Source of the DNA: an uncultured Verrucomicrobiota bacterium
GTDB lineage: Bacteria > Verrucomicrobiota > Kiritimatiellia > PWTM01
Direction: 5' to 3'
Length of the DNA: 64,000 nucleotides
Assembly: GCA_964386675.1 (NCBI GenBank)
Contig: CAYLTB010000001.1
Span: forward strand, 2,353 to 66,352
Shown: positions 50,867 through 58,214 of the stretch, piece after piece
Layout of the letters: each line of letters opens with the position of its first letter
How positions within the stretch are numbered: the stretch's first letter is position 1
Translations under genes and position numbers: made by a program
The notes under the pieces: generated by a model
Told to the model about the DNA's origin: nothing
Seen by the model: only the letters and a program-made list of their open reading frames with translations
The model's database searches: none

Positions 50867-51793
50867 TCAGGCGTCGGCGCCGTCAACCGATGGCCGCAAG
50901 CGCTCCCACGGCGGGGTGTCCGGCAGCAGCGCCTCGAATTCCGCGGTCCGTTCGCCCTCGTACTCCGCACTCCACCCGCCGCGGAGGAAGCGCGGGAACG
51001 CCTCGCGGCGCAATCGAGACCAGGACTCCGGTTCGCGGCCCGGAAGGATCGGGAAAAAGGCCGCGCCCGCTTCCCGCGCAGCCTGCCGGTCGCCGGGCGC
51101 GTCGCCGATCATCAGGACCCGGCCGGCGGCGTACCGCCCGCGCGCGGCCCGGTCCAGCATCTGTCCCTTCGTGCCTTGCGCCGGCCCGAGGATCGCGCGA
51201 ACCAGCGGCAGCAGACCGCTCTCGCGCCATTCGCGGATCACGGCCTCCTCCGGCGTCTGCGATACCACGACCAGGTCCGAAGCCGCCGCCATTGCGGCGA
51301 GCGCTTCCCGGACCCCGGGGAACGGCGGCGACGACGGCAGCTCGCGCGCCACGCGCGCATTGACCGCAAGGCTCCACTCGAGCAACCGCCGCAGTTCCGG
51401 TTCCCCGGTCCGCTCGGTCTCCGCGCGCAGTTCATCGAGGCTCAGCGGACGCCCCGATGTCACGAACCGCCGCAGCGGCCCCACGTCCGGCAGCGCCACG
51501 CCGGCGCGGCGCACCTCGGGCCGCCGGGCCAGCAGCTCGAAAACGCGCAGCAGCGCCGGGAACCGGTTGGAACCTCGCCACGTCGAGCGCAGGTTCACAA
51601 ACTCCGCGGTCTCTCGCAATTCGCGTTCGATCCGTTCCAGACCCCAGCACCGGATGATCTCCGGATGAAAGCAGCGAATCTGTTTCGGTCCCATCGTGTC
51701 GAATACGCAGCCGTCCGAATCCACCGCGACCAGTGTCGCGTGGCGGGGCGTAAAGCCGGCCGGGTTGGATAACGCATCCTGCATTTCAGTCAT
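50867..51793 (-). CDS. HAD-superfamily hydrolase
   Basis: Motif I is VAVDSDGCVFDTM (DxDG). Motif III/IV is MIGDAPGD. The cap region is large (308 aa total). Confidence 0.6.
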   Translation of the reverse strand: MTEMQDALSNPAGFTPRHATLVAVDSDGCVFDTMGPKQIRCFHPEIIRCWGLERIERELRETAEFVNLRSTWRGSNRFPALLRVFELLARRPEVRRAGVALPDVGPLRRFVTSGRPLSLDELRAETERTGEPELRRLLEWSLAVNARVARELPSSPPFPGVREALAAMAAASDLVVVSQTPEEAVIREWRESGLLPLVRAILGPAQGTKGQMLDRAARGRYAAGRVLMIGDAPGDRQAAREAGAAFFPILPGREPESWSRLRREAFPRFLRGGWSAEYEGERTAEFEALLPDTPPWERLRPSVDGADA

Positions 51794-51951
51794 CTCCCTG
51801 CGGCGCGGCCGCGCGGAATGTCCGAACAGCGCCGGACGCCGGCCGGCGGCGCCGTCGCCTCATCGTGTGGGCCGATTCGAGGATCCTTGGACATTCGAGA
51901 TTCCGCGGTTCGCAGTCCATGCCGGCGTTCCGTCAATCCGAGGCCGCGCCG

Positions 51952-53817
51952 TCATCGCCGGCCGGAAGGCGGTGCGAGACCTCCCAGCGACAGCCGACGC
52001 AGCAACGGCCGGCGTTTCACGCGCTGGGCGCTCACCCGCCGCAGCACCCGATCGAGCAGCCGCACGGTCTCGACGATGTGCGGACCCTTGTTGAGCATTA
52101 CGCACTCGGCCCGTCCGCTCATCGCCGCGTCGGAGACTTCGGCGCGCGAGGGGAGGCCTTTCTTGGCCATGCTTTCCAATACCTGCGTCGCCCAGATGAC
52201 TGGCACATGCGCGGCCTCGCACAGCGCGAGAATTTCCTCCTGCAACTCGGCGAGGCGTTCGAAGCTCACCTCAACCGCCAGGTCGCCGCGCGCCAGCATA
52301 ACACCGACCGGCGGGCAGTGCATCGCCGCCAGCAGCAGTCGGGGCAGGTTTTCGATCGCCGCGCGGTTCTCGATTTTCAATACGATGCCCAGCCGCCGCG
52401 CCCGCAACCGCCGGAGCTCGGCGGCCAGCGCGAGGATGTCGCGCGGGTGCCGGACAAAAGACAACCCCACGAGGTCCGCCCACGGCGCCGCCGCGCGCAA
52501 GTCCGATCGGTCTTTCTCCGTCAGCGCGGGGACGCGCAGCGTCGTCGCCGGCAGGTTGATGCCTTTCTCGGCGCGCAATTTTGATCCGTGGGGCGCGGCG
52601 TGGGTGATCTCGACCTCGAACCGGTTGCGGAAAACGCGGCGAATGACGCCGCCGATCTTGCCGTCGTCGAACCAGATCGGCTGTCCGGGCTGTACGGCGG
52701 TGAAGACCTCGCGCAGCGTGCAGGGAATGCTGGCCGGCGTCTGGAGCGCGCCGTTCGGGTCGTACCGGGCGGGACTGCCGGGGACGGATTCCGAGGTCAC
52801 CACGAGCGGGTCGCCGATGCGGAGCACCAGGGGCAGCGCGACCTCCGGCAGCGGTCCGATGAAGCCCTCGGCGATGGTGCGGCCGCCGCGCCGCAACCGG
52901 TAGGGCGCGCCGTCCCGCAGGTACACGTGTGCGCCCGCCTGAGCCAGGAAACCCTCGGGTTCGCGGCCGACCAGCGTCAGCGTGCGGCGCAGGCCGCGCG
53001 TATCGAGCAGACGCAGCTGGTCGCCGGCGCGCGCGCGTTCGAGTAGGCCGGCATCCACGGGGAGTGCCGCCTCGACGAAGGGGTGCTCGACTTCGGGCGC
53101 GCCGCGCGGCGTCAGCAGCACGCGCGCCGGCTCGACGACCGCGCCCCAGACATTGCGGCGCGGACCGAATTCGAGCAACCGGCCGACCGGACGGATCGCG
53201 CCGGTGCGCAGTTTGGGGCCCTGCAGGTCCGCGTAGATCCGGCAGGTCCGGCCGAGCCGCCGTTCTGCGGCGCGCACGTGCGCGACCATGGCGCGCCACA
53301 CGTCCGGGTCATCGTGGGCGCAGTTGATCCGCGCGAGGTTCATGCCGGCCGCCATGCAGTCCTTGACGAGCTCCGGCCGCTCCGCCGCCTCCGTGGGCAG
53401 GGTGACCATGATGCGCGCGGACCGCCGCGCGGGCGTCGGCCCCAGCAGCGCCTCGGCGTGGACGGCCAGTCGTTCGCCGCCGCTCGCGGGCGCTCCCCGC
53501 GCCGATGTCGTCCGCGGCGGCGGAAGGTCCGCCAGCCGGCACAACGACTCGAGCACGGCCTCGATGGCGCACAGGACGTTCGCCTCGGCCCGGCCGAGCC
53601 GGCTCAGACCCAGCGCGGCGAGGTCCTGCTGCAGGCCGCTCAGGTCGCCGTTCCGGAGCGCCAGGTAATGCAGCAGGTTGCGAGCGCTGTCCCGGTGGGA
53701 CTCGTGCGCCTGCCGTACCGCGTGCGCGTGGCGCCGCGCCAGCGCGCGGGCCTCGCGCTGCAGAGCCCGAAGGACCGGGATCATCCGCCGCGCGATGTAG
53801 TCGGGCGCGCGTCTCAT
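51952..53817 (-). CDS. pyruvate kinase-like protein with N-terminal extension and enlarged B domain
   Basis: Pyruvate kinase core motifs are present: MNLARINCAHD (compare MNVARLNFSHG), IYADLQGPKLRTG, TEKDRSDL, VMLARGDLAVEV and MLNKGPH. There is a ~140-aa N-terminal extension and a ~250-aa insertion between the GPKLR and TEKD motifs. No C-terminal allosteric domain is present. An ATGA overlap joins it to the upstream ThyA-like gene. Confidence 0.65.
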   Translation of the reverse strand: MRRAPDYIARRMIPVLRALQREARALARRHAHAVRQAHESHRDSARNLLHYLALRNGDLSGLQQDLAALGLSRLGRAEANVLCAIEAVLESLCRLADLPPPRTTSARGAPASGGERLAVHAEALLGPTPARRSARIMVTLPTEAAERPELVKDCMAAGMNLARINCAHDDPDVWRAMVAHVRAAERRLGRTCRIYADLQGPKLRTGAIRPVGRLLEFGPRRNVWGAVVEPARVLLTPRGAPEVEHPFVEAALPVDAGLLERARAGDQLRLLDTRGLRRTLTLVGREPEGFLAQAGAHVYLRDGAPYRLRRGGRTIAEGFIGPLPEVALPLVLRIGDPLVVTSESVPGSPARYDPNGALQTPASIPCTLREVFTAVQPGQPIWFDDGKIGGVIRRVFRNRFEVEITHAAPHGSKLRAEKGINLPATTLRVPALTEKDRSDLRAAAPWADLVGLSFVRHPRDILALAAELRRLRARRLGIVLKIENRAAIENLPRLLLAAMHCPPVGVMLARGDLAVEVSFERLAELQEEILALCEAAHVPVIWATQVLESMAKKGLPSRAEVSDAAMSGRAECVMLNKGPHIVETVRLLDRVLRRVSAQRVKRRPLLRRLSLGGLAPPSGRR

Positions 53818-54701
53818 GGATGCTCGGCGTCGTGCGCGCGGATTTTGGCGAGCACCGCGGGGCCGGCCTCGTCGTAGATCTCGCGGATCGCGGGGTCGTC
53901 CATGCGATAGACGCGGTCTTCGAAGGCCGTCGTATCAAGACGGCGGAACAGCCGTTGCTCGGCGTCGGCGAGGTCCTTGCCATAGATGTGGAACGAGTCC
54001 GCGTGCCAGTGCAAGCGGCCCAGTTCGACCGGCCGCCCGCGGCGGCGCGCCACCGCGTCGGCCACGACGTCCCGCGTGAACATCACGAAGCCGAACATGT
54101 TCATGAAATTGGCTCCCCACGCGTCGTTGCTGCGGAAGCGGATGTTCGTGTTGAGCCAGCCGATCCCGTCCGCACCCTCGAGGATGCGGTACCAGATGGA
54201 CTGCAGGCACGGCGGATCGTAGCAATCGAGGTCGAGGTTCGGCATCCAGGTGATCATCTGCGCCTGCCGCGTGAACGGCTGTGCCGCGAGCTTCTCGATG
54301 ACCCGCTCGATCTGCGGTACGACGAAGGGGCCTTTTTCGACGCTGGCGCCGTTTTCAAACTCGCGCCAGACGCCGTAGCGGGCCAGCCGGCCATGGTAGG
54401 TGTATTCCCAGCGCGTGTCGGCGGGATCGTTGATGTTCTTGACCCAATGGTCCTTTGCGCCCTGCAACTCCAGCACGTATTCGCGCAGGTCCTCGATCCC
54501 GCCGGGAAACGCGCGGTGGATCATCGGGTCGCTCATCGGGCGTCGCACAGTGATGCCCATGGTGGCGTCGAGGCTGGGCGGGTCGCCGGGCCGGTCGTAC
54601 TGCGTGCGGAACCGCGTGCCGCCGTGATATAACGCCACCAGCGCCCGCTCGTAGGCCTCCGCCAGCGACTCGCCCTCGACGTGCAGCACGGGGATGTCCA
54701 T
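53814..54701 (-). CDS. thymidylate synthase (ThyA) family protein, divergent
   Basis: It aligns along the whole length with ThyA. LELQGAKDHW matches WFLQGDTN and QIERVIEKLAAQPFTRQAQMITWMP matches QI..V...LK.DP.SRRIIVSAWNP. The nucleophile is conserved in PPCLQSIWYRI (PCH..Q.Y), RSNDAW matches RS.D, and HADSFHIY matches GDAHIY. The start is at MDIPVLHV (54701); an alternative lies at 54731. Confidence 0.65.
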   Translation of the reverse strand: MDIPVLHVEGESLAEAYERALVALYHGGTRFRTQYDRPGDPPSLDATMGITVRRPMSDPMIHRAFPGGIEDLREYVLELQGAKDHWVKNINDPADTRWEYTYHGRLARYGVWREFENGASVEKGPFVVPQIERVIEKLAAQPFTRQAQMITWMPNLDLDCYDPPCLQSIWYRILEGADGIGWLNTNIRFRSNDAWGANFMNMFGFVMFTRDVVADAVARRRGRPVELGRLHWHADSFHIYGKDLADAEQRLFRRLDTTAFEDRVYRMDDPAIREIYDEAGPAVLAKIRAHDAEHP

Positions 54702-55382
54702 CGCGTTCTCCGGGTTCGATGCCGTTCGCACGGTAGCAATAACGCGACCCGCGCGTCAAACGCGTGCGGCGGCCCGAGCGCGGTCAATTACAGCGCCGCC
54801 AAGCGCGGGCTCATCGGCCTGACCAAGTCCCTGGCCGTCTGGGGCGCGCCCTATGGCGGCCGGGCCTGCTGCGTAGCGCTCGGCCCGGCGCTCACGCGGG
54901 CCGCCATGATCGACATCATGGGGGACTTGTACGATCCCTCGCCGCTGGAAATCACGCGCCATCCCGACGCCATCGACCGGCAGAGGCGCCTGATCGACCG
55001 CATTCATGCCCTGGGCGCGGAGGTGGTCATGTCGTCGCACCTGTCGTGTCTGCCGACGACGGAACAGGTGGCGGAACACCTGCGGGCCCTGCGGGCGCGC
55101 GGTCCCGACGTGGTGAAGATCGTCACGGGGGGGGGCGATACGGAGGGCGAACGGACGGAGGCGCCGCGGACCACGCTGGTCCAGAAGCGCGAGGTCGGGA
55201 TGCCGTTCATCCACTTCCGCAACGGCCGGTTCAGCCGTACGCACCGCTGCTTCGGACCGGCGCTCGGCCTCTCGATCGCGTTCGCCGTCTACCGCTGCGA
55301 ACCGCGCTACGGGATGACGCCGCCGACGATCCGGGCCATGAGGGCGGTGTTGGACAACCTCCACTGGAAGAACAGCGGATGA
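54681..55382 (+). pseudogene. type I 3-dehydroquinate dehydratase (AroD)-like ORF, apparently degenerate, with SDR-like fragment at 5' end
   Basis: The C-terminal ~150 aa align with AroD (AEVVMSSHLSCLPTTEQVAEHLRALRARGPDVVKIVT matches [38 protein letters not shown]). The Schiff-base Lys of the SMAKTG motif is replaced (HFRNGRFSR). The N-terminal 60 aa instead resemble the YxxxK region of an SDR (VNYSAAKRGLIGLTKSLA). The 5' end overlaps the convergent ThyA-like gene. Confidence 0.4.
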
Positions 55383-55822: not shown

Positions 55823-57373
55823 TCAGCCGGCCGGCGGCGCGCGCCCGGCCGCGCGCGTGAGGCGCGCGAGCCGCGTCTTCGCCGCGGCGGTGAGCTGCGG
55901 CCACGCGAACCGCCACTGCCAGTTGCCCTGCGCCGTGCCGGGCGTATTCATCCGCGCCTCCGACCCCAGTGCGAGAACGTCCTGCAGCGGCGCGATCGCC
56001 AGCCGCGCGGGAGAGCGCCACGCGAGTTCGACCATCCGCGCGGGCGCCTTCGCCGGGTCGCGTCCCAACAGCGCCTCCGCCGCCCGCCGCGCCCGCGCGA
56101 CTTCGCCCTCCGCCGACGCGGCCGACGCCTCGAACCAGCCGCGCGCCGTGTCGTTGTCGTGCGTGCCCGTGTACACGACGCTGTTCTCGCGGAGGCGCTC
56201 CAGGCGGTCCGGCCGCTCCGCCAACTCGCCGAAGAGGAACTGCAAAACCTCCATGCCCGGCAGACCGAAGCGGTCGCGCAGGGCGCGGACCTCGTCGGTT
56301 ATGATGCCGAGGTCCTCCGCGAGGATCGGCAGCCGGCCGCCGAGTGCGTTGCGCAGCGCCGCCAGTAGCGCGTCGCGCGGGCCGGCGACCCAGCGGCCGC
56401 GCTCCGCGGTCGGTTCGGAGGCCGGGATTTGCCAATAGTCCTGCAAGCCCCGGAAGTGGTCGAGGCGCAGCCAATCCGCCCACGCGAGCGCGCGCCGTAC
56501 GCGGGCGATCCACCAGCGATACCCTTCGGCGGCGTGCGCCTCCCAGCGGTAGAGCGGATTGCCCCAGCGCTGGCCGGTGGTTGAGAAATAGTCCGGCGGA
56601 ACGCCCGCGACCACGGTCGGATGCCCTCGATCGTCCACGTGAAACAGGTCGCGGCGCGCCCAGACGTCTGCGCTGTCGTGGGCGACGAAGATGGGCAGAT
56701 CGCCGATCAGCCGGATGCCGAGCCGGGCGGCGGTGCGGCGCAGCGCCGCCCATTGGCGATCGAAGAGGAACTGGAGGATTTCCTCGCGGCGGATCTCTCG
56801 ATCGAGCCGCCGTCGCGCGGCGTCCAGCGCGTCCGGCTCTCGTTGCGCCAGCGGCGCCGGCCAGTCGGTCCAGGCCCTGCCGCCGTGCTCGGTCTTGAGC
56901 GCCATGAACAGCGCATAATCCGGCAGCCAATCCGCCTGCCGGCGACGGAAGGCGGCGAACCCGCGCTGCCGAGCGGCCGACGCCGCGGAGAACCGGTCCG
57001 CGGCCGCCTGCAGTCGCGCTCGGCGCGCCGGCAGGATGGCGCCGAAATCCACCCGCGTCGCATCGGTGATCGGAAAGCCTTGCAGGTCGCCGGCGGTCAA
57101 CCAGCCGTCGCGGCGGAGGTCATCGAAGCTGATCAGCAACGCGTGGGCGGCGAACGTCGAAAGGCTCTGGTAGGGTGAGTCGCCGTAACCGGTAGGGCCG
57201 AGCGGCAGAAACTGCCAGTATCGCTGGCGCATCGCCGAGAGCGCGCGCAGCCAACGGCGGGCATGCGGACCGATCTCGCCGATGCCCCAGGGGCCCGGCA
57301 GCGAGGTGACATGCAGCAGTAAGCCGGCGGCGCGCTCCGGCCGCGCGGCGCGGCCGGAGCGCTCAATCGTCAT
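55823..57373 (-). CDS. malQ: 4-alpha-glucanotransferase (amylomaltase, GH77)
   Basis: LLLHVTSLPGPWGIGEIGPHARRWL...YWQFLPLGPTGYGDSPYQSLSTFA is the MalQ N-terminal signature. GH77 catalytic region motifs follow. The start is at MTIERS (57373), and the ORF extends to 57481. Confidence 0.88.
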   Translation of the reverse strand: MTIERSGRAARPERAAGLLLHVTSLPGPWGIGEIGPHARRWLRALSAMRQRYWQFLPLGPTGYGDSPYQSLSTFAAHALLISFDDLRRDGWLTAGDLQGFPITDATRVDFGAILPARRARLQAAADRFSAASAARQRGFAAFRRRQADWLPDYALFMALKTEHGGRAWTDWPAPLAQREPDALDAARRRLDREIRREEILQFLFDRQWAALRRTAARLGIRLIGDLPIFVAHDSADVWARRDLFHVDDRGHPTVVAGVPPDYFSTTGQRWGNPLYRWEAHAAEGYRWWIARVRRALAWADWLRLDHFRGLQDYWQIPASEPTAERGRWVAGPRDALLAALRNALGGRLPILAEDLGIITDEVRALRDRFGLPGMEVLQFLFGELAERPDRLERLRENSVVYTGTHDNDTARGWFEASAASAEGEVARARRAAEALLGRDPAKAPARMVELAWRSPARLAIAPLQDVLALGSEARMNTPGTAQGNWQWRFAWPQLTAAAKTRLARLTRAAGRAPPAG

Positions 57374-58214
57374 GCGCGAGGCCCGTGATGACGTAGCCGC
57401 CCGACCGTTCGTCGGACTCGAGGGTGAGCAGGCCTCGGCGCTGCGCTTCTTCGAGCAGCGCGTTGAACGAACGAAACCCATGGTAGGCTTCGTTGAAGTT
57501 CGGGCGTCGGCGCTTCAGCGTCTGCTTGACCATCGAGCCCCAGACCCGCCCGTCGCCGCCGCGGTCGGCGAGCAGCTCCTCGACGACTTCGATCACATGC
57601 GCGATGCCTTCGCTGGCCGGGTCGCCGTCCGCGGCCGGCGTCTTCGCGGCCGCCGCGGCGGGCCGGGCGGCTGCGGCGGCCCCGGCGGCCGCCGGCGCGC
57701 GAGTCCGGCGCGGTTTGCGCGCCGCGCTGGAGGCGCGCGCGCGGGCGAGGTCGTCGTAGTAGATGAACTCGTCGCAGTTCGCGATCAGCAGGTCGGAGGT
57801 CGAGTTCTTCACACCGACGCCGATCACGGTCTTGTTGCTCTCGCGCAATTTGCTCACCAGCGGCGAGAAGTCGGAGTCGCCGCTGATGATCACGAAGGTC
57901 CGTACGTGCGGCTTCGTGTAGCAGAGGTCCAGCGCGTCCACGACCAGCCGGATGTCGGCGGAGTTCTTGCCGGACTGGCGGACGTGCGGCACGTCAATCA
58001 GTTCGAAAGACGCTTCGTGCATCGCGGCCTTGAACTCCTTGTAGCGCGCCCAGTCGCAGTAGGCCTTCTTGACGATGATGGGCCCCTTCAGCAGCAGCTT
58101 TTCGAGAACGAGCCGGATGTCGAAGCGCTCGATCTTCGCATCGCGCACGCCGAGCGCGACGTTTTCAAAATCGCAGAAGACCGCCATGCTGCCGGAGTCG
58201 GTGATTTCGCTCAT
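57363..58214 (-). CDS. NYN (LabA-like) nuclease-domain protein with C-terminal OST-HTH/LOTUS domain
   Basis: MAVFCDFENV...KAYCDWARY...IISGDSDFSPLVSKLRESNKTVIGVG is the NYN/LabA fold. The C-terminal ~80 aa (VWGSMVKQTLKRRRPNFNEAYHGFRSFNALLEEAQRRGLL) are OST-HTH-like. It overlaps the malQ start by 11 nt. Confidence 0.7.
   Translation of the reverse strand: MSEITDSGSMAVFCDFENVALGVRDAKIERFDIRLVLEKLLLKGPIIVKKAYCDWARYKEFKAAMHEASFELIDVPHVRQSGKNSADIRLVVDALDLCYTKPHVRTFVIISGDSDFSPLVSKLRESNKTVIGVGVKNSTSDLLIANCDEFIYYDDLARARASSAARKPRRTRAPAAAGAAAAARPAAAAAKTPAADGDPASEGIAHVIEVVEELLADRGGDGRVWGSMVKQTLKRRRPNFNEAYHGFRSFNALLEEAQRRGLLTLESDERSGGYVITGLAHDD

Follow-up and report, generated by a model that had tools for sequence, protein, structure and literature searches.

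A divergent ThyA-like gene, probably a housekeeping thymidylate synthase, in a putative lineage-specific operon with pyruvate kinase and HAD phosphatase genes of a Kiritimatiellia bacterium

Three consecutive minus-strand genes, encoding a ThyA-like protein, a protein related to pyruvate kinase (PK) and a hydrolase of the HAD superfamily, lie in a stretch of 64,000 nucleotides from an uncultured bacterium of the Kiritimatiellia (Verrucomicrobiota; GenBank contig CAYLTB010000001.1, positions 2,353 to 66,352). The whole stretch, with a G+C content of ~69%, is hereafter called the window. We consider it probable that these are central-metabolism genes of unrelated function, joined in a lineage-specific operon with no dedicated pathway, and, with about the same or slightly greater confidence, that the ThyA-like enzyme is a housekeeping thymidylate synthase (TS), as judged from its sequence. 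A first-pass annotation of this DNA had offered two readings: a ThyA-fold enzyme acting with a kinase-like and a phosphatase partner in a pathway of the MilA/BcmA type, or simply a TS gene next to a pyruvate kinase gene (pyk). The second is the better supported of the two. By profile comparison, the ThyA-like gene belongs to a large clade akin to the methanogen-type TS and outside all curated equivalog models, and its specificity residues point to deoxyuridine monophosphate (dUMP) as the substrate rather than to the pattern for cytidine or deoxycytidine monophosphate (CMP or dCMP) seen in MilA, BcmA and T4 dCMP hydroxymethylase.

Layout of the three-gene locus

The three genes pointed out in the first-pass annotation are present as co-directional open reading frames (ORFs). 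Their G+C content at third codon positions (GC3, 0.83-0.88) is of the coding type, and each has Pfam matches: PF00303 for the ThyA-like protein (34.9 bits, cutoff 24.3), PF00224 for the PK-like protein (179.6 bits), and HAD families for the third. The features of the locus, in window positions, are as follows.

53814-54701, minus strand: ThyA-like gene, 295 aa, from the ATG at 54701 (MDIPVLHVEG...), which is the start of the homologues
54207-54209, minus strand: codon of Cys165, the predicted catalytic nucleophile in DPPCLQ, aligned with Cys146 of E. coli ThyA
51952-53817, minus strand: PK-like gene, 621 aa, predicted Pyk2-type (PRK14725) pyruvate kinase
50867-51793, minus strand: HAD-superfamily hydrolase gene with a C1-type cap, 308 aa
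51794-51951, minus strand: spacer of 158 nt between the PK stop and the HAD start
54702-54759, minus strand: promoter-like element and ribosome-binding site (RBS) 5' of the ThyA-like gene, read from the sequence

The mechanical ORF of the ThyA-like gene extends to a GTG at 54731; every homologue begins at the ATG at 54701. The stop codon TGA of this gene (53816-53814) lies on the start codon ATG of the PK-like gene (53817-53815), which gives the ATGA overlap (53817-53814) described earlier, and the HAD gene follows at the distance of 158 nt that had also been reported. The 158-nt gap of the window is replaced by a 4-nt overlap of PK and HAD in two sister contigs, L004 and L092.

Upstream of the ThyA-like gene, a promoter-like block consists of TTGACG (54759-54754), an 18-nt spacer and TACCGT (54735-54730), and it is followed by GGAGA (54711-54707) five bases before the ATG. 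The block and the RBS are kept in the window, L004 and L092, and not in L007, the locus of an 83%-identical relative. A generic promoter scan did not flag the block; the promoter/terminator scan gave nothing above shuffle expectation, and it placed no terminator-like site between the three genes, the 158-nt spacer included. The conserved TTGACG-N18-TACCGT element probably acts as a promoter from which transcription starts, and it is plausible that the three genes are co-transcribed and that the first two are translationally coupled via the ATGA overlap. ThyA-like, PK-like and HAD proteins 100% identical to those of the window are also encoded on a JGI contig (Ga0116238_10000852, sample 3300010347).

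A bacterial ThyA clade akin to methanogen-type thymidylate synthase

The best curated family for the ThyA-like protein is the methanogen-type TS, TIGR03283, with 92.8 bits under a cutoff of 174.55, and among the canonical bacterial TS models the top score is 33.5 bits (cutoff 327). The protein fails all curated TS equivalogs (TIGR03284, NF0024xx); of the ThyA models, only the Pfam gathering score of PF00303 is passed. In a sequence search of the PDB, the single sequence reached E ~0.04, and a family profile reached B. subtilis ThyA at E 1.6e-4. The AlphaFold model (predicted local distance difference test, pLDDT, 71; predicted template-modelling score, pTM, 0.73) has the ThyA alpha/beta fold, and structure-based alignments place the protein at ~15-18% identity to canonical ThyA. 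The earlier description of the protein as highly diverged is therefore apt with respect to canonical ThyA, as the PDB E value shows, and not with respect to its own family: a protein search returned ~3,300 relatives, of which the best 120 are 69-94% identical and 289-356 aa long (mostly 294-308). Those of the 120 that carry a name are called 'thymidylate synthase' or 'hypothetical protein' and come from Kiritimatiellales, Verrucomicrobia, Lentisphaerae and Pontiella.

The clade is large and widespread. A scan with one genome per species found the ThyA-like gene in at least 597 species, single-copy per locus. The best 80 of these (65-83% identical) belong to Verrucomicrobiota, Kiritimatiellota, Lentisphaerota, Spirochaetota, Bacteroidota and Fibrobacterota, with genomes of 34-72% G+C. 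A search of representatives at 50% identity gave 1,085 clusters at E <=1e-3. Among 71 full-length representatives (32-57% identity), 67 match TIGR03283 only, with a best E of 1.4e-45, and none of the 71 reaches its cutoff. A literature search found no paper on this bacterial ThyA clade or on an association of ThyA with PK.

The likeness to the methanogen-type TS, as represented for example by ORF59 of Methanobacterium virus PhiF1, extends to the motifs P-C-L, R-S-x-D and H-I-Y, to an Asn eight positions past the Asp, and to an acidic residue at position -3 relative to the Cys. The TS role of the methanogen type is itself a predicted one. The two groups differ in size, the window protein having ~295 aa and the methanogen type ~200-210 aa; an insertion at about residues 77-125 and a C-terminal part of ~50 residues with a long helix lie outside the methanogen model. 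They also differ in their hosts, which for the window type are bacteria, presumably users of folate and not of tetrahydromethanopterin.

Some members of the clade carry additional domains. Inteins (Hint, LAGLIDADG or intein-splicing domains) occur in five relatives that are 40-57% identical (P0122, P0124, P0152, P0166 and P0189), and in the two whose sequences were read, P0122 and P0124, the intein sits between ...YDPP and CLQS, which makes the catalytic Cys residue +1 of the extein. Another relative, P0130, is a fusion of RNase H with a ThyA-like protein. We take the inteins and the RNase H fusion as signs of what may be a core role in making DNA precursors.

Active-site residues and the predicted substrate

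The catalytic Cys in PPCLQ and the RS.D motif noted in the first-pass annotation were recovered as DPPCLQ at residues 162-167 and RSND at residues 190-193. Residues were paired by profile alignment to E. coli ThyA (query sequence 100% identical to PDB 1aob), with the following correspondences.

Arg145: E. coli R126'
Gln146: E. coli R127'
Asp162: E. coli L143
Cys165: E. coli C146
Arg190 and Ser191: E. coli R166 and S167
Asp193: E. coli D169
Asn201: E. coli N177
His238 and Tyr240: E. coli H207 and Y209

Cys165, Arg190, Ser191, Asp193, Asn201, His238 and Tyr240 are invariant in the 71 relatives. Asn201 stands eight residues past Asp193, a spacing equal to that in the ThyA of E. coli and of B. subtilis. 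The N-terminal half is aligned less securely, and Glu74 or Glu78, Trp98, and Tyr102 or Tyr109 are uncertain candidates for E58, W80 and Y94. In comparison with canonical ThyA (E. coli; TIGR03284/PF00303), counterparts of C146, R166, S167, D169, N177, H207, Y209 and R126' are present, and conservation is very strong; canonical models, however, score no more than 33 bits against cutoffs above 300, and the window family has no recognisable R21 motif (DRTGTG) or conserved C-terminal carboxylate tail.

Several positions of the ThyA fold are known to distinguish substrates and products. Asp in place of Asn at N177 goes with cytosine substrates, as in T4 dCMP hydroxymethylase, MilA, BcmA and phage 5-hydroxy-dCMP synthases (PMC5175136, PMC13326640). 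Ala and Lys at S167 and R126' go with the ribonucleotide preference of MilA and BcmA (PMC5175136), and Asn in place of Asp at D169 is found in flavin-dependent 5-hydroxy-dCMP synthases of the RB69 gp48 / AfhB type (PMC13326640). At all of these positions the residue in the window protein is that of a TS: Asn201 where MilA, BcmA and T4 gp42 have Asp, Ser191 and Arg145 where MilA and BcmA have Ala and Lys, and Asp193 where the flavin-dependent enzymes have Asn. The idea that Asn177 and other specificity positions might reveal a CMP/dCMP type did not hold up, since the residues found are of the dUMP type. Only at L143 does the protein show, with Asp162, the 'hydroxymethylase' state, an acidic residue at this position being common to MilA, BcmA, T4 gp42 and the phage flavin-dependent 5-hydroxy-dCMP synthases.

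In the sequence, Cys165 is placed for attack on C6 of a pyrimidine nucleotide, Asn201 (N177) is the residue that specifies uracil, and Ser191 and Arg145 (S167 and R126') together with His238 and Tyr240 (H207 and Y209) are those that specify a 2'-deoxyribonucleotide. Asp193 (D169) points to a one-carbon donor of the folate or pterin type. The product would be deoxythymidine monophosphate (dTMP), and the ThyA-like protein would serve as the TS of the cell.

Gene neighbourhoods of the ThyA-like gene

Neighbours were counted within 3 kb of the ThyA-like gene at 80 species-level genome loci (the best 80 of at least 597 species) by tblastn and ORF clustering. At none of the 80 loci is there a PK homologue within this distance, nor is there a HAD homologue, and a functional linkage of the ThyA-like gene with PK and HAD was rejected because neither is present. 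The genes that do recur are the following.

CoaB (DFP)-HD_3/YfbR-like fusion, directly downstream on the same strand: 17 of 80 loci
Split purH upstream, in Spirochaetes: 9 of 80 loci
Serine hydroxymethyltransferase (SHMT) downstream, in Spirochaetes: 9 of 80 loci
GTP cyclohydrolase FolE2 downstream, in Spirochaetes: 8 of 80 loci
HIT-family gene upstream: 6 of 80 loci

The DFP/CoaB-HD_3 fusion, of which the HD_3 part is 5'-deoxynucleotidase-like, is separated from the ThyA-like gene by a median gap of ~30 nt (for example, L025 2957-4231; also L093 12059-13315). This arrangement can be likened to the coaBC-dut operon of E. coli. In that organism, YfbR feeds the route from deoxycytidine to dUMP, and dut shares an operon with coaBC. 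The Spirochaete cluster (L023, L043, L045, L046, L062, L069, L074, L078 and L081) has the order of an IMP cyclohydrolase/MGS-like fragment and AICAR transformylase (together the split purH), ThyA-like, SHMT and FolE2. The recurrent partners are thus folate and deoxynucleotide enzymes, which fits thymidylate synthesis. A gene for FolA (folA) is adjacent to the ThyA-like gene in no locus examined, and in Bacteroidota and Fibrobacterota the ThyA-like gene stands alone amid unrelated genes. URO-D, which lies beside the ThyA-like gene in Pontiella and in one metagenome-assembled genome, was considered as a partner and set aside, as it does not recur in the 80 loci.

The gene order of the window is local. 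MalQ, ThyA-like, PK and HAD follow each other in this order only in the closest relative (94% identity), and linkage of the three genes is limited to the genus-level clade of the window. In L007, a dihydroxy-acid dehydratase gene lies downstream of the ThyA-like gene. At the more distant contig L093, a HAD homologue (58% identity) is directly upstream of the ThyA-like gene (72%), which is followed by the DFP-HD_3 fusion. Searching the window and 1.4 Mb of flanks with E. coli FolA, E. coli ThyA and T. maritima ThyX (the ThyX sequence being unverified) gave no match to FolA, ThyX or ThyA, in a search without statistical power.

Thymidylate or another dUMP-derived product

Several observations weigh against a TS assignment. 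The protein is under every curated TS equivalog cutoff, in vitro dTMP formation has been shown for no member of the clade nor for the methanogen type, and the literature terms the biochemistry of archaeal ThyA scarce. The position of R127' is occupied by Gln146 in the subfamily of the window and by Arg in most of the wider clade. A counterpart of Arg21 appears not to be kept: its candidate column contains R, K, E or A, in an N-terminal half that aligns poorly. The length of the C-terminus also differs among family members. Asp162 at the L143 position is acidic, as in phage enzymes that form hydroxymethyl products. An acidic residue in place of Leu correlates in phage enzymes with hydroxymethyl and not methyl products (PMC13326640); a bulky hydrophobic residue at this position is thought to keep water out and so to favour the methyl product. 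The adjacency of ThyA-like and HAD genes, though rare, arose at least twice, in the window clade and in L093.

Phage genomes add a further point of this kind. Among seven IMG/VR contigs with members of the ThyA-like family, two, both of jumbo-phage size, have a gene for a canonical ThyA at a distance of 1-2 kb from the family member (L097 4001-7902 on a 332-kb contig, and L101 3187-8118 on a 137-kb contig). The canonical ThyA of these contigs, which passes TIGR03284, shows Leu143 and Asn177 and ends in ...PIAV (or ...PVAI). In L097, the ThyA-like family member is followed by dihydrofolate reductase (DHFR), and in L101 it carries an intein. The arrangement can be likened to td, frd and gene 42 of T4, and it argues that the two ThyA-fold enzymes are non-redundant in these phages.

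A natural deletion points in the same direction. The sister contig L092 (metagenome contig ERZ4756920 NODE_5345) encodes PK and HAD proteins 84% and 81% identical to those of the window. It keeps the promoter-like region, the RBS and the first 13 codons of the ThyA-like gene, which are fused directly to the last codons of the gene. This in-frame deletion leaves a 15-codon ORF at L092 2471-2518, encoding MDISVLHVEGDSLRR, whose TGA still overlaps the ATG of PK. The deletion, by which PK and HAD persist without the ThyA-like gene, suggests that this gene can be dispensable and can be lost, perhaps where a second TS or thymidine salvage is available. The retained ORF may mean that translation of PK depends on an upstream ORF.

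These observations could be accommodated if the family consisted of dUMP-directed C5 enzymes with another product, of which 5-hydroxymethyl-dUMP is the likeliest, or with unusual one-carbon chemistry, independently of PK and HAD. The clade could then be a second, non-redundant dUMP C5-transferase, for example a cellular 5-hydroxymethyl-dUMP synthase or a TS-like enzyme with another reductant or one-carbon carrier. Asn201 would still predict dUMP as the substrate, and Asp162, the variable C-terminus and the missing Arg127' would be in keeping with a different reaction. Such an enzyme would explain the ThyA (and DHFR) neighbours in phages, the acidic residue at L143, the recurrence of putative nucleotidases alongside (HD_3 at 17 of 80 loci, HAD twice) and the deletion in L092.

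We regard this alternative as unlikely. The rule that an acidic residue at L143 marks a hydroxymethylase was rejected as decisive, because PhiF1 ORF59, which served as a control and passes TIGR03283 (187.1 bits, cutoff 174.55), has Glu at this position in the motif KEIPC. The rule does not discriminate within the clade, and D, E, H, N and Y all occur at this position in the superfamily. The acidic residue is therefore best taken as a trait of the clade that leaves the product unsettled. The housekeeping grade of conservation of a single-copy gene, in at least 597 species and across six phyla, also speaks for TS, as does the operon-like setting with SHMT, FolE2 and purH, and the conserved neighbours of the gene include no dedicated kinase, glycosidase or glycosyltransferase.

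The pyruvate kinase and HAD genes

The second gene is predicted to encode a Pyk2-type pyruvate kinase, which would convert phosphoenolpyruvate (PEP) and ADP to pyruvate and ATP. Its product scores 740.9 bits with NF011314/PRK14725 'pyruvate kinase' (cutoff 642), over residues 10-611 and model positions 16-609 of 614. PK homology starts at about residue 132, with a second homologous stretch at 354-606, and the protein stops where the canonical C (allosteric) domain would begin. The enlarged B domain and the absence of the allosteric domain described in the first-pass annotation are borne out, while the N-terminal extension measures ~130 aa and not 140. In the AlphaFold model (pLDDT 86), a helical N-terminal domain is combined with a TIM-barrel A domain and a large all-beta B region (~207-420), and there is no C domain. 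The top 50 Foldseek matches are all pyruvate kinases, and the architecture was seen in none of the matches inspected; a PDB sequence search likewise retrieved pyruvate kinases, down to E 3.5e-39.

The motifs of the active site are intact: ARINCAH (162), DLQGPKLRTG (197), KIEN (481), ARGDLAVE (509) and ATQVLESM (543). The catalytic residues (Arg and Asn of RxN, Lys of KIEN, the Glu and Asp ligands of Mg2+, and Thr of ATQ) all occur in the protein, and in 20 homologues they hardly vary. DLQGPKLRT bears Leu113, Gln114 and Lys117, the signature of K+-independent pyruvate kinases (PMC8835810, PMC4284704).

The closest described counterpart is Pyk2 (NCgl2809) of C. glutamicum, which carries an N-terminal extension of 120 aa, shows PK homology in residues 128-213 and 346-606, and lacks a C domain (PMC5112673). 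It rescues a pyk-null strain, has PK activity in vitro, with a low specific activity of 1.64 U/mg, and forms a hexamer (PMC5112673). In size the window protein (621 aa) is similar to Pyk2 (67.6 kDa); the extension is ~120-130 aa in both, the homology blocks of the window protein (132-206 and 354-606) lie close to those of Pyk2, and neither has a C-terminal effector domain. This likeness is one of described architecture, from which the membership of Pyk2 in NF011314/PRK14725 is also assumed. The two proteins differ in that the window PK has the K+-independent signature, whereas Pyk2 is reported to depend on K+ and Mn2+ (PMC5112673), and in that the Pyk2 gene adjoins ldhA, while the window gene lies behind the ThyA-like gene.

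One might ask whether the PK-like protein is not a glycolytic enzyme but one that depends on PEP and has a different acceptor or serves in regulation. The helical N-terminal domain, the enlarged B domain, the missing C domain and the failure to find a solved structure of this type could be read in this way, as could the hexameric state and low specific activity of Pyk2. But all PK catalytic motifs are conserved in the 20 aligned homologues, the score is above the curated equivalog cutoff, and Pyk2, a protein of this architecture, allows pyk-null C. glutamicum to grow again and is active in vitro (PMC5112673). A non-glycolytic role is in our view improbable.

The history of this gene appears to differ from that of its neighbours. 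Among its homologues (P0273-P0390), identity is 83% in the sister clade and then drops to 64% or less. The named relatives are Betaproteobacteria or carry only the label Pseudomonadota, and include Thiobacillaceae, Gallionella, Sideroxydans and Nitrosomonadales. In both outside contexts examined, one of them a Thiobacillaceae genome, the gene is stand-alone. The identities of the ThyA-like and HAD proteins, by contrast, fall gradually within the Planctomycetes-Verrucomicrobia-Chlamydiae (PVC) bacteria. Because of the jump in identity and the Betaproteobacterial relatives, we infer from similarity patterns rather than phylogeny that PK probably came by horizontal transfer from a donor resembling Betaproteobacteria and landed behind the ThyA-like gene, to which it would be coupled via ATGA.

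The third gene encodes a predicted HAD-superfamily phosphatase, which is conserved in PVC bacteria. It matches PF00702 (26.9 bits, cutoff 26.4), PF13419 and PF13242. The four HAD motifs can be placed at D25-S-D27 (I), Ser178 (II), Lys209 (III, by position only) and GDAPGD 230-235 (IV); a long helical cap separates motif I from motif II. The family, of ~297 aa, shows 50-60% identity in Kiritimatiellia and allied PVC bacteria and has generic annotation only; its named members come from Kiritimatiellota and one Planctomycetaceae, and its neighbours vary between loci. A PDB sequence search returned only spurious designed helical proteins and no solved relative.

The joint pathway proposed in the first-pass annotation, in which the PK-like 'kinase' and the HAD protein would work with the ThyA-fold enzyme to make a modified pyrimidine nucleotide or nucleoside of the MilA/BcmA type, can draw on the common strand and the ATGA overlap of ThyA-like and PK, on the 4-nt overlap of PK and HAD in L004 and L092, on the HAD homologue that immediately precedes the ThyA-like gene in the unrelated L093, and on the ability of pyruvate kinases to phosphorylate various (deoxy)nucleoside diphosphates. 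It is nevertheless very improbable and already largely refuted by the comparative data: no PK or HAD gene is linked at any of the 80 loci, the 83%-identical L007 has dihydroxy-acid dehydratase downstream instead, PK passes a pyruvate-kinase equivalog and is stand-alone in its closest relatives outside the clade, L092 retains PK and HAD after losing the ThyA-like gene, and the ThyA-like protein has none of the residues of CMP/dCMP enzymes (Asp at N177, Ala and Lys at S167 and R126'). A MilB/BcmB-type N-glycosidase, tailoring enzymes and a phage deoxynucleoside monophosphate kinase were found neither in the window flanks nor recurrently in the 80 loci, and the window gene, unlike the MilA, BcmA and T4 gp42 systems, is of a cellular housekeeping type and lies outside a biosynthetic cluster or phage.

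Significance

The juxtaposition of the three genes is best regarded as a local accident, in which a horizontally acquired PK gene was inserted behind a housekeeping gene, and as a three-gene 'pathway' it is of no consequence. The interest rests with the ThyA clade, which is widespread in anaerobic PVC bacteria, Spirochaetes, Bacteroidota, Fibrobacterota and large phages, and which is automatically named 'thymidylate synthase' yet falls under every curated TS model. If its members are truly the sole TS of their hosts, an archaeal-type enzyme has displaced both ThyA and ThyX in bacteria, with a divergent folate site that bears on antifolate sensitivity and on models of thymidylate evolution. If they are not TS, an unexpected modified pyrimidine nucleotide is made by the host bacteria. 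The kinase of the Pyk2 type provides a PVC example of a poorly studied class of pyruvate kinases without the C domain.

Other features of the window

The genes flanking the locus encode MalQ, an NYN-domain protein, a glycosyltransferase, PriA, a TPR protein and TatA. Scans of the window for tRNA genes and Rfam families gave no match. Between the ThyA-like gene and malQ (55823-57481, minus strand), a plus-strand ORF at 54681-55382 is a chimera of gene fragments: its residues 29-75 resemble the YxxxK region of short-chain dehydrogenases, and its residues 98-206 resemble the C-terminal half of type I 3-dehydroquinase. This remnant lies in the 1.1-kb 5' region of the ThyA-like gene; L004 has only 343 bp at the same position. 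It is probably a pseudogene or a rearrangement scar, and the JGI gene call at this ORF on the matching contig is a 158-aa DHquinase_I (weak).

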